DNA of 64,000 nucleotides from Candidatus Enterousia sp. GTDB lineage: Bacteria; Pseudomonadota; Alphaproteobacteria; Rs-D84. The notes under the pieces were generated by a model. It did no database searches, was not told the origin of the DNA, and was given only the letters and a program-made list of their open reading frames with translations. Positions 19,515 to 24,505 of the stretch are shown here, in pieces. The position numbers and the translations under genes were made by a program. The stretch spans positions 2,571 to 66,570 of the forward strand of contig JAZLBQ010000001.1 in the NCBI GenBank assembly GCA_045613785.1, read 5' to 3'. Each line of letters starts with the position of its first letter. Position 1 is the stretch's first letter.

Positions 19515-19563
19515 TTCTACTTGCATTGGGGCATAGTTTAACGGTAGAACTCCGGACTCTGAC
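19515..19563 (+). pseudogene. Truncated pseudo-copy of the tRNA-Gln promoter -35 element plus the tRNA 5' half (acceptor 5' strand, D-arm and anticodon stem-loop up to the CUG anticodon loop).
   Basis: ttctacttgcat-TGGGGCATAGTTTAACGGTAGAACTCCGGACTCTGAC is identical to tRNA-Gln positions 1-38 at 24432-24468. The -35 TTGCAT is fused directly to the tRNA. The 31-nt -10/leader segment is deleted between short TTGG direct repeats. Homology ends in the anticodon loop at 19563. Confidence 0.7.
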
Positions 19564-19783
19564 AACCTATATGCTACACAACAAAAAATCCCAGATTCCC
19601 GCATATTACAGATTGAATCACGGGCAAAATGGCCGTTTAACATTTGTGCATATCACTGCATACAGGCTGGTTTAAGTTGGTTTGTATATGGTTTCAGTTT
19701 TACATATTTTTTACACAGGAAAAGTGTTGCAAAAGCATATCAATGTGTTCAGAAATTAAACCCGCCAATCGGTGGGTGTTTTT

Positions 19784-22700
19784 TTATTTTCGCATAAATT
19801 CAAAATATTTAGGATCTTCTTTAAATACCTGAACATCAAATATGCCTGTTCGCATTAGCGTTTTGGCGACATCTTCATAACCTTCCTTTTCTGTATTAAG
19901 CAAGAAGCTTACCGATTTATTTTGATCAAGCAAATCGGCCGCTAGGCTATTCACATTGGCATAGGAAGAAAATTTCCCAGTTACTCTGTCATATGGCACT
20001 GCACCCTGTCTTTGGACAGCAAGCATTAAAGCCTCTCCAACGTCAGTATAGTCTTCATAAGAATTCACCACAGATGCAACGTCCCCGATCCTATACGCAG
20101 TCTGTTCTGCTGGCGTTGCACGATACGCATCATCTGATGCACCATACAAGTCTTTAGTGGCATCATATAACTGTGCCCCTAATGCATTTGCGTTTGGGTT
20201 AAGTTCATCAATTGCATGTCCGCCATTTTCATGTGCCAAGGTATTTATAAAACGTTCATAATTTTGTTGCTCATCAAAATCTATGCGGGTTTTGTTTGTC
20301 TTGGGGTAATATGCTCCGACAGTATTATCTGTGAATTTGTGAGCTTCTATAGTCGGTGCACGGTGGCGTGGAATTCCGTTCATTTCAAGCAATTTATTAG
20401 AAATTTCTTGGGCAAATATCGTTTTTTGATCTGTTGTTAGGCTGTACCAATTTTGCTTCATTGATTTTAGCCATTCGTCAGATTCAATTATATCGTGTAT
20501 TTGGTCCGCACGTAATAATGCAATTTCATCTAGTCGTTCTATTTGAACAGTATTTCCCACATCAAGTAAAACTTTGTCTGTGGTTAATTTTCTGATTCGT
20601 TCAGATCCTGCTCTTTTTGCTTTTTTGGCTTCATCGGCTGTTGTTTCCCCTTTTTCAACTAGCTTGTTTTGATAGTCTTCTACCTGTGAATATCTGGCTT
20701 TATATTCATCTATATGCTCTTGCGCGGTTCTTTTTATTTGTCGTACATCACGATTAAATGTAGAATAATTACCGGTAAAACCGTGATTTAGGACATGTTC
20801 ATAACTGATCATTTTGGAGCGTAAAACTTCTATTTTTGGATATTGTCTGGCAAATTCTGTTGGGTTGTCTAGATATAAATCAAATACTTCATCGGGGGCA
20901 GTCCGCCAAAAATCATCCAATTCTTTTTTTACTTGGGGCAAATTTGTTCTTGCTTCATTCATTATTGCTTTCATGCTTTCATCATTCAATGGGGCATCCC
21001 AAGAAACCCAATTCTTTGACATTTGTTGCATCTTTGATAAATCATTGTCTGCCATCGCTTTGAAATCATCCAACGACTGGTTGCGTGGGGCGTATTTTCT
21101 GTGAAGTTCACGCCAAACCGCTTCAACATCATCCAAATTGTCGGTGGCACGCATTTGTGGAATTTTACGTTTTAATATCAGCCAGTTGCCAGTAAGGCTA
21201 TCTTTTTGAGCCCGTTCTACAATATCTATTATGGCGTCGAATTTCTGTTTTATTGCGGCGGTACTTTTGGCTATGCGACTGGATTTTGAAATCGCCCATT
21301 TGGTAATACCGGTTATCACCGATGCCAATTGCAGGCCAATACCAACCGCACGCCATACCTGTTCCGGTTCCCAAGATTCCCAGAACCCTGCTTTGTTATC
21401 CGCCATGTCGGTACCATTTACCAACATGGTTGCCCAGATTTCGTCATCGTCTGGTATCAGGTTTGCCAGGCGGGCCAGTTCACTGTCAACTGCGTCCGCC
21501 TCGGCATCGGTCATGTCATTTTGGACATTTGCCATGCGTTGCAAGTTTTCGGCCAGCATTTTCTTGGCACACGTTGCGTTTTTACATTTATTACTTTCCA
21601 CCAAGAAATTGTCTGCAATGCCGTTTATTTTTAGTTGACTGGTTATTTCAATACCGGCACCAACGGTTTCAATGGCGGTAAATGCAATTGCAGACTTGGT
21701 CGCTGTGGCCGTGCCAGCAACAGCGGCGGTGGCGGTCCCGACGGTCGCAACAGTGATAACAATCCCAACAATTGCACCACCAACAATCATTGTAATGTTT
21801 ATACCCCTTTGCAGGTTTTGTGCAGATGCAGATGATGGCAATACGCAACTTTGTGTTTTATCGTCCCATTTTGCAGCCTTGCATTCTGGACATTCTTTCA
21901 GGTTTGATTTTCGCAAGACTTCGCATTGTTGTTCGCCCAAGCCGATACAACGTTTGCCGCTGTATGTGCCGCCTGTGACGATACAGGACATTCCCTGAAC
22001 ACCACCGGCAACAGTCTTTTTCCATTTTTCATTTATATCATTAAAAACAAAGTCTATTTGATTGTCACCAACACGACATGTTTTTATGTCGTCTTTGAAA
22101 TCGGTTATGCCATTTCTTGCACAGCCCGTGCCGGTATATGTATTAAACCCAGAATCACATTTGACCGATGATTCCGATACACCCGCACGTTCGGCAACAT
22201 ATTGTTTCAGATATGTTTCAACATTGGGCGCATTTGTAACCTGAATGCCGTGACAGAATACAAAGTTATCAATGCCGTATGCTGTTTTTAGGTCTTTTTG
22301 TTTGGTGACTGTATTAAAGTTTATTTCGCATTTTCCATTTTTATATTCTGCTATATACCCAAATTTGGCCATGGATTGGTTTATTTTTGCACATTTTGCA
22401 CTGTCTGCCGCACAGGATGCAGACCAACATGTGGCGGTGCCACTGACATTTGTGCCGCCGCCCGCACAGCCGGCCGTGGTTGGTTTTGCATCATACATAC
22501 GACAGATTGCGTTTTGAATGCTGTTCTTTATGATTTGGTCTTTTGGTTCTTCTAAATCGTCAAACACGAATTCATAGTATGCGTTTTGGTTATGTGATGT
22601 GCACATTAACGTGTAGTCTAAGGTGCCTTTATCAAAGTTGCCTTTGCATTGTCCTGTTGTGTCGTTGTGTTTTAATCGTGCGTATTCCTTGGCTAATGTT

Positions 22701-23110
22701 TGGCCTGGGGTCAAATTGACCTGGGTTCCGCCATAGATTTTGTTTGTAAAGAAATCATCAACGCATATATAGCCGGCTTTGCCTTTGTATTGTTTGTCGC
22801 ATGCGTGATAAAATTTTATATTTGCTTTTTTAACCAGCGTATTTACAAATTTTTGACATTGTGATTTGCCGTCCGATTTTTTGATGTCCCAGCCAGCAAT
22901 TGCACAAATATTCCATAATTTTTGGGCGGATATACCAGTGCCATTGGATTGCTTTATTTGATTGTTATATTCGCTGATTACAGAAAATTGTTTTTCGGCT
23001 GGCACGAATTCTTTTACAACAGATTCCACCGTAGATGGATTTATGTGAATGTTTGCCAAACATGGTGTAATAAAAAACAGCGATAATAATGTCAGGGCTA
23101 TTTTTTTCAT
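19784..23110 (-). CDS. Large tripartite protein (1108 aa): signal peptide plus a Cys-rich N-terminal domain, a central Gly/Ala/Thr/Val/Ile-rich hydrophobic segment, and a roughly 600-aa charged C-terminal domain.
   Basis: The start was moved to ATG 23110 (MKKIALTLLSLFFITPCLANI). The N-terminal 470 aa carry about 30 Cys. The central segment is GINITMIVGGAIVGIVITVATVGTATAAVAGTATATKSAIAFTAIETVGAGIEI. The C-terminal domain contains LAHENGGHAIDE. It overlaps the upstream gene by 4 nt (ATGA). Confidence 0.7.
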   Translation of the reverse strand: MKKIALTLLSLFFITPCLANIHINPSTVESVVKEFVPAEKQFSVISEYNNQIKQSNGTGISAQKLWNICAIAGWDIKKSDGKSQCQKFVNTLVKKANIKFYHACDKQYKGKAGYICVDDFFTNKIYGGTQVNLTPGQTLAKEYARLKHNDTTGQCKGNFDKGTLDYTLMCTSHNQNAYYEFVFDDLEEPKDQIIKNSIQNAICRMYDAKPTTAGCAGGGTNVSGTATCWSASCAADSAKCAKINQSMAKFGYIAEYKNGKCEINFNTVTKQKDLKTAYGIDNFVFCHGIQVTNAPNVETYLKQYVAERAGVSESSVKCDSGFNTYTGTGCARNGITDFKDDIKTCRVGDNQIDFVFNDINEKWKKTVAGGVQGMSCIVTGGTYSGKRCIGLGEQQCEVLRKSNLKECPECKAAKWDDKTQSCVLPSSASAQNLQRGINITMIVGGAIVGIVITVATVGTATAAVAGTATATKSAIAFTAIETVGAGIEITSQLKINGIADNFLVESNKCKNATCAKKMLAENLQRMANVQNDMTDAEADAVDSELARLANLIPDDDEIWATMLVNGTDMADNKAGFWESWEPEQVWRAVGIGLQLASVITGITKWAISKSSRIAKSTAAIKQKFDAIIDIVERAQKDSLTGNWLILKRKIPQMRATDNLDDVEAVWRELHRKYAPRNQSLDDFKAMADNDLSKMQQMSKNWVSWDAPLNDESMKAIMNEARTNLPQVKKELDDFWRTAPDEVFDLYLDNPTEFARQYPKIEVLRSKMISYEHVLNHGFTGNYSTFNRDVRQIKRTAQEHIDEYKARYSQVEDYQNKLVEKGETTADEAKKAKRAGSERIRKLTTDKVLLDVGNTVQIERLDEIALLRADQIHDIIESDEWLKSMKQNWYSLTTDQKTIFAQEISNKLLEMNGIPRHRAPTIEAHKFTDNTVGAYYPKTNKTRIDFDEQQNYERFINTLAHENGGHAIDELNPNANALGAQLYDATKDLYGASDDAYRATPAEQTAYRIGDVASVVNSYEDYTDVGEALMLAVQRQGAVPYDRVTGKFSSYANVNSLAADLLDQNKSVSFLLNTEKEGYEDVAKTLMRTGIFDVQVFKEDPKYFEFMRK

Positions 23111-24039: not shown

Positions 24040-24392
24040 GACTACATTCGTGTGAATTGTATCATATATTTGCATGGATTTATACACAATTTTTACATGC
24101 GTAGGCTTGTGGTGTAATGGGAAGAGAAATGTGAAAATATATTCAAAAATTATTTCAAAATGCCCCGGTTTTACATAGGAAGTAGTGGTTTTTTGTGCGT
24201 TTTTCAGATCAGCGGACTAGCGGAACAATGGTCTGGAAAAATTAAAAGTGGCGGGAATATGGTGTTTTTAATGTAAAATCAAGGTGATGGTTATTGTTTA
24301 GGGGTGTATTAGATACATATTTTATATGTATAAAAGTGCTTTCATTTTGCAAAAATTTTTACATATTTTTTACATGGGGATTAACTTTCTGC

Positions 24393-24421
24393 TTGCATTG
24401 GAAATAAAAAAGCCTTATAAT
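24393..24421 (+). promoter_or_regulatory. Sigma-70-type promoter of tRNA-Gln.
   Basis: -35 TTGCAT (24393-24398), a 17-nt spacer, a perfect -10 TATAAT (24416-24421), then 10 nt to the tRNA 5' end at 24432. Confidence 0.7.
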
Positions 24422-24431
24422 CCGCCGTGCT

Positions 24432-24505
24432 TGGGGCATAGTTTAACGGTAGAACTCCGGACTCTGACTCCGTCAGTGTTGGTTCGAATCCAGCTGCCCC
24501 AACCA
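24432..24505 (+). tRNA. tRNA-Gln (anticodon CUG) with encoded CCA.
   Basis: I folded the cloverleaf by hand. Acceptor TGGGGCA/TGCCCCA with U1:A72. D-stem GTTT/GAAC. Anticodon loop CU-CUG-AC (U33, A37). T-arm GTTGG-TTCGAAT-CCAGC. Discriminator A plus CCA. Confidence 0.85.

Follow-up and report, generated by a model that had tools for sequence, protein, structure and literature searches.

Among the 3,919 islands at tRNA genes (tDNAs) recorded in the Islander survey, 159 carry a fragment of the 5′ end of the target gene, which lies upstream of the tDNA, and 2,083 sites are centred on the anticodon (Hudson, Lau & Williams 2015, PMC4383910); only tyrosine recombinases were known at the time of that survey to target tDNAs (Islander paper, 2015, PMC4383910). 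What is probably a slot of this type, an uncommon form of a well-known kind of island, is present in a 64,000-nt stretch of the genome of Candidatus Enterousia sp., a gut alphaproteobacterium (the whole stretch is referred to here as the window, and all coordinates without a locus name are window positions). A truncated copy of a tRNA-Gln(CUG) gene that comprises nucleotides 1-37, hereafter the stump, stands there upstream of the intact gene, and it is probably what remains of the original tRNA-Gln(CUG), a displaced 5′ fragment that marks the left junction of an island targeting this tRNA.

The locus shares with the 5′-fragment islands of Islander an intact tRNA gene with a terminal fragment in the same orientation on the correct, upstream side, a break centred on the anticodon, a distance between the repeats (4.9 kb) that falls within the 2-200 kb allowed for such islands, an island that supplies the replaced part so that the gene stays functional, and the occurrence of tandem arrays, here in the related locus L031. 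It differs from them in that no integrase lies in or overlaps the interval, the arms persist in many species without a recombinase, and the replaced part includes the promoter. The classical 3′-fragment islands and prophages (P4 and many pathogenicity islands) likewise have a tRNA target, a regenerated gene, a displaced end fragment and variable cargo, but the polarity is reversed in the present locus, where the 5′ half with its promoter appears to have been brought in and the 5′ half displaced. The sequence-only reading of the window, an earlier inspection of its letters, had described this polarity as atypical, and it indeed matches the minority 5′-fragment class in Islander.

The stump is defined by the longest exact direct repeat between 19400 and 24600, of 38 nt, whose two copies (19526-19563 and 24431-24468) lie 4.9 kb apart in direct orientation, both on the plus strand, and consist of one leader base and tRNA nucleotides 1-37, up to the last base of the anticodon loop; in related loci the tRNA identity extends 3 nt more, into the 3′ strand of the anticodon stem. 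A 21-mer taken from the repeat has two matches in the window against 0.00 expected in shuffled sequences. Further upstream, AAATTTCTACTTGCATTGG (19511-19529) matches AACTTTCTGCTTGCATTGG (24383-24401), the sequence around the intact −35 box, at 17 of 19 positions, and the −35 box is therefore duplicated as well. A second −35 box fused to the 5′ part of the tRNA and a break in the anticodon loop had both been proposed from inspection, and both stand. The intact gene, one of two tRNA genes in the window, was also correctly placed, being found by ARAGORN and Rfam (62.9 bits), while its description as having a textbook promoter (TTGCAT-17-TATAAT) holds for the −10 box, which is perfect, but not for the −35 box, where TTGCAT agrees with the consensus at three of six positions.

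Related loci, designated by L numbers, were fetched by means of homologues of the flanking DUF5662 gene and a search with a 23-nt pattern from X150, the non-coding sequence of about 135 nt that is joined to the stump. X150 reaches about 160 nt when it is taken to include el, an 18-nt element of two TTTACA hexamers with an 11-bp period (TTTACA-N5-TTTACA). The same junction, followed by the same X150 and el, recurs 11 times, in units that represent at least nine genome groups, namely the window, L020, L022-24, L025, L031 (two units), L033, L037, L038, L039 and L041, with the two close strains L033 and L038 counted as one group. The units adjoin the DUF5662 and CBAH genes, or CBAH alone where DUF5662 is missing (L037, L039), and this gene pair is syntenic beside the stump or tRNA-Gln in most related loci. 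Beyond X150 the cargo varies: the operon family of the window is also found in L033/L038, L041 and L020; L022 and L037 have only leuS there, L031 has a restriction-modification-like cluster, and a glycosyltransferase cluster is present in L025, L031 and probably L039. Three loci retain less of the unit, with el only in L003 and L005 and el plus 14 nt of X150 in L004.

Empty sites, which the sequence-only reading had suggested looking for in related genomes, are present as well. In L035/36 an intact tRNA-Gln lies directly upstream of DUF5662 at the position of the stump, and in L040 and L042 an intact tRNA-Gln is located near DUF5662 with an extra gene between, in all cases without stump or X150; this evidence holds at the level of the genus and not within species. 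Two intact tRNA-Gln(CUG) genes were found in none of the fetched loci. Rather than the one-off insertion in this genome that had been envisaged, the locus is a genus-wide slot with a junction shared by at least nine genome groups.

The promoters suggest which of the two copies is the older. The intact tRNA-Gln of L035 has a promoter of type A (TTGCAA-17-TATAAT), which is kept by the stumps of L025, L022 and L031a (L031a and L031b being the two tandem units of L031, with L031b the inner one), whereas the intact gene past the cargo always has a promoter of type B, in which el and about 18 nt precede TTGCAT-17-TATAAT; it is retained before every intact tRNA-Gln on the island side. This pattern argues that the stump is the original gene and that the promoter and 5′ half of the working gene came with the inserted DNA. 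Type B promoters also stand before the stumps of the window (there with a mutated el and a 33-nt deletion), L020, L033, L038 and the inner unit of L031, which would be the expected outcome of a second insertion into an already rebuilt gene. In L031 the two tandem units flank the restriction-modification-like cluster, and the inner one looks like an attP site, in the order Y250, el, promoter, 5′ half, X150 and el, where Y250 denotes a conserved non-coding module located 5′ of el near the intact tRNA-Gln.

In the window the promoter of the stump has lost 33 nt, including the −10 TATAAT and the leader, and the missing piece is bounded by TTGG microhomology; the deletion and its boundaries had been recognised from inspection, although with a size of 31 nt. 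The full promoter is retained before the stump in L020, L033, L038 and L031b, and L045, an independent assembly of the species of the window (DUF5662 99% identical), has the same truncated promoter and stump, so the deletion is real and lineage-specific, and the truncated promoter with its stump is not an assembly artefact.

A unit consists of tRNA nucleotides 1-37 to 1-40, X150, el and CAGGAA, after which similarity ends abruptly. Across 10 aligned units the mean identity is 98% in the stump, 86% in part 1 of X150 and 95.6% in the 93 nt of X150 part 2 and el, the latter being 100% identical among five species, while the third codon positions of CBAH are about 51% identical between species and represent a saturated background. 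The element noted earlier near both tRNA copies is indeed there, as TTTTACATATTTTTTACA (18 nt) occurs exactly at 19698-19715 and 24357-24374, with a degenerate third copy at 24080-24097. A relaxed form of the motif (TTWACA-N5-TTWACA) has 35 matches in the 610 kb of sequence that were fetched, all but one of them at the tRNA-Gln locus and those all in the orientation of the tRNA, and none at the paralogous operons elsewhere. After leuS or the restriction-modification-like cluster, Y250 recurs in L022, L037 and L031b with 84-88% identity, and in the window it holds a hairpin, C(C/T)AGA(C/T)C(G/A)GCGGACTAGCGGAACAATGGTCTGG (24207-24238), that is conserved in L022, L037 and L031. A layout with an extended −10-like sequence and a degenerate el, as seen upstream of the operon in the window, is repeated beside the operon in L004, L005, L008 and L009. 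A 53-aa open reading frame (ORF) that spans X150 on the reverse strand is disrupted by a 1-nt indel when species are compared.

Screening of other loci for tRNA fragments revealed an analogue that does encode an integrase. In L012 an intact tRNA-Val(GAC) (6934-7010) is accompanied by an exact copy of its nucleotides 1-42 (17124-17165) in the same orientation and with a different promoter, and the last 3 nt of the fragment belong to the 3′ strand of the anticodon stem, which places its end at the sublocation seen in the Gln junction. The interval of about 10 kb contains a paralogous operon for 319-aa and 1045-aa proteins, an AAA_14/DUF4143 ATPase and, beside the fragment, a 447-aa tyrosine integrase (Phage_integrase, E = 7.5e-28; Phage_int_SAM_3, Arm-DNA-bind_3); a 77-aa ORF of the same interval with a weak HTH_17 match is Xis-like (E = 1.6e-4, below the Pfam cut-off). 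In the whole 22-kb locus there are just four copies of the 9-mer TTTGGAGCA, arranged as two tandem pairs with an 11-nt period and located at +111/+122 downstream of the anticodon of the fragment and −148/−159 upstream of that of the intact gene; in the equivalent frame of the window, el lies about 138 nt downstream (+138) of the stump anticodon and about 108 nt upstream (−108) of the intact one.

This arrangement is reminiscent of the att sites of lambda Int and P4-like heterobivalent integrases, which likewise have a short inverted repeat (here the anticodon stem) around a 7-nt overlap as their core and tandem direct repeats with a period of 10-11 bp about 100-150 bp away on both arms. The L012 analogue extends the likeness to an arm-binding integrase and an Xis-like helix-turn-helix protein, whereas no cognate integrase was found for the Gln system, and el is likened to arm sites by geometry only.

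The most likely course of events would begin with DNA recombining into the anticodon stem-loop of the original tRNA-Gln(CUG), with the 7-nt loop as the crossover region and an identity that stops after the first 0-3 nt of the 3′ stem strand. The far end of the incoming DNA would have carried its own promoter and tRNA nucleotides 1-41, which would have joined the resident 3′ half to rebuild the working gene at 24432-24505, and the old promoter and 5′ half would have been stranded, fused to the incoming end that now is X150 and el. The simplest account would involve a lambda/P4-like tyrosine integrase with attP arms formed by the promoter plus tRNA 1-41 and by X150-el, in which case el would by analogy provide the arm-type binding sites, X150 the P′ arm and Y250-el-promoter the P arm. 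An integrase probably made the Gln junction, and el would bind it. The unit in the window is a non-autonomous, decaying remnant, because it has no recombinase, a promoter that has lost 33 nt, a mutated el and a stop codon in a cargo gene. A decayed remnant of a tRNA-associated island, as opposed to a functional mobile element, is also what the sequence-only reading had proposed, and the proposal is supported by the empty sites, the shared junction, the variable cargo, the L012 analogue and the near-identical blocks, described next, that different species have in common and that stop at the stump or the tRNA.

The slot has also exchanged DNA between species. L022 and L037 share a block of 3276 bp that is 98.7% identical, in which stump, X150, leuS, Y250, el, promoter and intact tRNA follow one another and which terminates precisely where that tRNA ends, while 50-nt stretches just outside of it are 20-48% identical on both sides; L025 and L031 share 3894 bp with 97.9% identity, ending at the stump. 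The CBAH genes of these pairs are 77% and 75% identical, respectively, and such blocks against a background of about 75% indicate horizontal transfer of the sister units. In the first pair a leucyl-tRNA-synthetase-like gene is the sole gene between the stump and the rebuilt tRNA-Gln (L022 7025-9631, L037 about 8700-11300), and an essential housekeeping gene, leuS, has apparently been exchanged through the slot. For the cargo of the window, no partner with at least 95% identity was found among the compared loci.

Several observations weigh against an island made by an integrase. No integrase was found in the 64-kb window, as had been noted from inspection for the bracketed DNA, or in any of the 11 Gln units: tblastn searches of the window and of all loci, for which XerD, lambda Int and the L012 integrase served as queries, matched only L012, Pfam scans of the cargo ORFs of L020, L031, L028, L041 and L040 yielded none, and the interval in the window is filled by two non-integrase genes with no room for one. 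A circular or phage-borne form of X150 was found neither in IMG/VR nor in the phage and plasmid databases, the plasmid search returning a tRNA match only, and the 23-nt X150 core had no matches in IMG/VR and three in metagenome contigs, all in chromosomal Enterousia-like loci; a phage or plasmid origin of X150 was rejected, as nothing besides the tRNA matched in the phage and plasmid databases. L020, L025 and L031 have no intact tRNA-Gln within reach on the far side, and leuS is an odd, unexpected cargo for a mobile element. The base composition is not anomalous, with an ordinary GC of 0.385-0.465 across 20-24 kb and 0.374 in the 19-20 kb interval at the left edge of the island, compared to a range of 0.34-0.47 over the window. 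In both recent exchanges X150 part 1 is 79-83% identical, below the rest of the block, so the recent crossovers occurred inside X150 part 2/el and not at the tRNA junction, and the events were therefore homologous replacements and not fresh site-specific integrations. The current turnover of the slot thus seems to proceed via homologous recombination in its conserved modules, X150 part 2/el and the tRNA.

A part of these observations would be expected if the tRNA had been split in a single ancient event, not necessarily site-specific, in the ancestor of these species, after which X150 part 2 and el were kept by selection for a role at the DNA level, for example as the site of a regulator that acts on adjacent genes, and the cargo later changed by homologous recombination. 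The left crossovers of the recently shared blocks inside X150, the lack of an integrase at every Gln unit and the position of el just upstream of promoters on both strands are all consistent with such a history. It is nevertheless a rather unlikely one: the close relatives L033 and L038 (90% identical in CBAH third positions) are only 86% identical in X150 part 1 while many distant pairs reach 93-97%, which argues against simple vertical descent, the tRNA-Val island of L012 has the same geometry with an integrase, and a tandem attP-like unit as in L031 is what repeated integration would predict. Another possibility is that stump-X150-el and Y250-el-promoter-tRNA are still active as the attL and attR of a cassette slot that has no integrase of its own, and that swapping depends on an arm-binding tyrosine integrase whose gene is not linked to the slot and lies at another place in the genome or on a helper element. 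This we consider improbable to a similar degree; if true, Enterousia species would exchange surface-protein operons, restriction-modification systems, glycosyltransferase clusters and even leuS at tRNA-Gln, a fresh promoter and 5′ half of the tRNA would arrive in each event, and the locus would represent a trans-mobilised cassette system of reversed polarity.

The strict conservation might instead reflect a functional small RNA, composed of the tRNA 5′ half and a tail of about 160 nt and expressed from the retained tRNA promoter. X150 part 2 and the stump remain 95.6% and 98% identical between species with saturated synonymous sites, a recognisable −10 TATAAT precedes the stump in nine of the 10 aligned units, and a terminator follows in the window (19760-19787), but the consensus fold (RNAalifold) has no compensatory pairs, the folding energy of the single sequence is not unusual (z = −0.9), Rfam at E <= 1 matched the tRNA only, and no terminator is common to the units. 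Moreover, the −10 box is lost in the window and L045 and mutated in L022 (TATAGC), yet X150 is conserved, which makes such a gene very doubtful. Least probable of all, to the point of being hardly credible, appears a local duplication, tandem or segmental, in which the promoter and 5′ half of tRNA-Gln were copied and unrelated genes later came to lie between the copies, which had been offered as the alternative from inspection of the window. The direct orientation of the copies 4.9 kb apart, the lack of an integrase and the ordinary GC would fit it, and a stump in a syntenic position beside the same neighbours, named beforehand as a sign of ancestral tandem duplication, is literally what the related genomes contain. 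However, the variable cargo and the existence of empty sites argue against a simple duplication, at least nine genome groups have the identical junction, preceded by host-specific promoters, and X150, which is fused to the fragment, has no homologue beside the intact gene; X150 as the native upstream region of that gene, as a tandem-duplication junction would have it, was rejected since the two have no similarity besides el. Comparative sequence data thus appear to have largely refuted the duplication already, and a displaced 5′ fragment at the edge of a tRNA-targeting island stays the preferred explanation of the stump.

The features of the slot and of its flanks are collected in Table 1.

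Table 1. Coordinates of the tRNA-Gln slot, its cargo and its flanking genes in the window
Feature	Position	Strand	Remarks
DUF5662 gene, with CBAH (17780-18859) the conserved left flank of the slot	18932-19468	-	Pfam PF18907 and PF02275
Decayed copy of type B promoter	19484-19526	+	el mutated (TTTGTG...TTTATG); -35 TTGCAT (19521-19526) kept; -10 and leader deleted
Stump of tRNA-Gln(CUG), nucleotides 1-37, probable displaced 5′ fragment	19527-19563	+	Exact 38-nt repeat; intact gene at the same position in L035/36
X150 part 1, moderately conserved non-coding sequence joined to the stump	19564-19628	+	Mean identity 86%, 10 units
X150 part 2, el (19699-19715) and CAGGAA, proposed P′ arm	19629-19721	+	Highly conserved distal module
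Terminator-like hairpin with T-run, 3′ end of the big gene (convergent)	19760-19787	+	97% identical to the sequence after the big gene of L001
Cargo gene 2, variable protein of 1108/1114 aa	19784-23128	-	
Cargo gene 1, conserved partner gene of about 310 aa, interrupted by TAA	23107-24039	-	
Operon upstream region	24056-24097	.	Extended -10-like TGATACAAT on the minus strand (24056-24064); degenerate el (24080-24097)
Half-el (GGTTTTACATAGGAAG, 24167-24182) and Y250 upstream of el	24167-24356	+	Conserved module
el, type B promoter and short leader	24357-24431	+	el 24358-24374; -35 TTGCAT 24393-24398; -10 TATAAT 24416-24421
Intact tRNA-Gln(CUG), probable regenerated gene	24432-24505	+	ARAGORN, Rfam
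tRNA-Gln terminator	24515-24540	+	
Autotransporter gene, right flank	24591-28514		

The cargo in the window is a minus-strand operon, as had been described, but of two genes instead of three. The stretch 23107-24087 is a single reading frame with one in-frame TAA (23770-23772, minus strand), and the two small ORFs recognised earlier (23107-23604 and 23770-24087) are the parts of this one broken gene; its homologues have GAA (Glu) at the position of the TAA and uninterrupted ORFs of 306-316 aa. Either the gene has become a pseudogene in this strain, or the stop codon stems from an error of sequencing. The partner protein of about 310 aa is 47-92% identical to the window copy across the fetched loci (mostly 70-89%), and its homologues in databases number more than 2,149, without a Pfam family for any of them. 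Its AlphaFold model is all-helical and of low confidence (pLDDT 55), and a Foldseek search with this low-confidence model was uninformative, with a best PDB match at E = 0.028 and no listed query TM-score reaching 0.4.

The second, big protein carries a signal peptide and can be divided into an N-terminal part rich in Cys, a hydrophobic segment rich in Gly/Ala/Thr and a C-terminal part that has been swapped. Searches with it gave no Pfam match and nothing better than E = 0.45 among PDB sequences, and for the cargo as a whole no toxin, trafficking or immunity domain was found by Pfam or PDB sequences, nor anything significant by Foldseek with the low-confidence model. Paralogues of the big protein are present in 21 loci and have mainly the first ~100 residues in common, and all its relatives come from Candidatus Enterousia or unnamed alphaproteobacterial metagenome-assembled genomes from the gut. 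The segment 21234-24100 is 82-87% identical at the nucleotide level to the tRNA-Gln-locus copies of L003, L004, L005, L006 and L033, whereas the 3′ part of the big gene resembles only L001 and L002, both beside a tRNA-Ser; the gene is a mosaic of a conserved N-terminus and a swapped C-terminus. Similarly, L009 and L020 share a 1.6-kb stretch with 96% identity inside otherwise different big genes. The two-gene module of a ~310-aa helical protein and a variable protein of 1000-1800 aa (window 19784-24087; L001-L021) forms a large multi-copy family in gut Alphaproteobacteria, with C-terminal swapping between paralogous loci. On two predicted viral contigs, L046 and L047 (IMG/VR UViG_3300024269_000278 and UViG_3300018494_000543), a 310-aa homologue with 64% identity is followed by a 450-aa ORF (10001-12303), a few kb from tape-measure and tail genes; the L046 homologues of the cargo have no match in PHROGs, and the module may travel as prophage cargo too.

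Like the present slot, capsule and O-antigen loci and the polymorphic-toxin-like Rhs/CDI loci are known for highly variable surface or defence cargo that lineages swap via crossovers in conserved flanks, and for swapping of C-termini. The slot differs from them in that its anchors are non-coding att-like modules and a tRNA, and its cargo proteins have no Pfam, PDB or PHROG match.

Other recombination events have left traces at the same tRNA. Large serine recombinases of about 501 aa, 55-76% identical to each other, are encoded within the interval between DUF5662 and the autotransporter gene in L028 (7714-9260) and in L043 and L044 (10001-11547). The recombinase ORFs extend across tRNA-Gln, where they read its 3′ part in reverse complement, and close with ...WLGQLDSNQH and a stop codon in the variable loop of the tRNA; in more distant members of the family the reverse complement of a different tRNA supplies the end of the ORF (...DSNPRPLASEANTLSN). 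The first 10 nt past the tRNA at these loci are also present in loci that are free of the recombinase, and the serine recombinase crossover is therefore probably located just 3′ of the tRNA. This recombinase was considered as the maker of the Gln junction and rejected, as neither X150 nor a displaced fragment is found at its elements. Exact 15-20-nt copies of the tRNA-Gln 3′ end lie 120-200 nt downstream of the intact gene in L035/L036 (9797-9815), L042 (8244-8262) and L003 (1804-1823), and in L019 (10548-10566 and 10721-10739) tRNA-Met has the same pattern; these copies resemble the scars that classical integration would leave at the 3′ ends of these tRNAs. L028 and L030, two strains whose DUF5662 proteins are identical, differ by an insertion of about 600 bp between tRNA-Gln and DUF5662 (L028 9397-9919) with two small ORFs, one of them related to the multi-copy 101-103-aa ORFs of the window (47196-48145).

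Taken as the displaced end of an island, a promoter with half a tRNA provides a dependable marker of a hot spot of genome plasticity in uncultured gut Alphaproteobacteria with reduced genomes, and it documents a rare island polarity in which the promoter and the 5′ half are replaced. The related loci constitute a natural series of states that covers an empty site, a single unit, tandem units and a decayed unit, and an analogue with an integrase stands at a different tRNA. Among the cargo of the slot are members of a very large two-gene family that is uncharacterised, plausibly surface or host-interaction proteins, and the boundaries of the slot are of help in delimiting these and in comparing them. 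Should the att-like arms still be in use in trans, the slot would represent an unusual system of cassette exchange.

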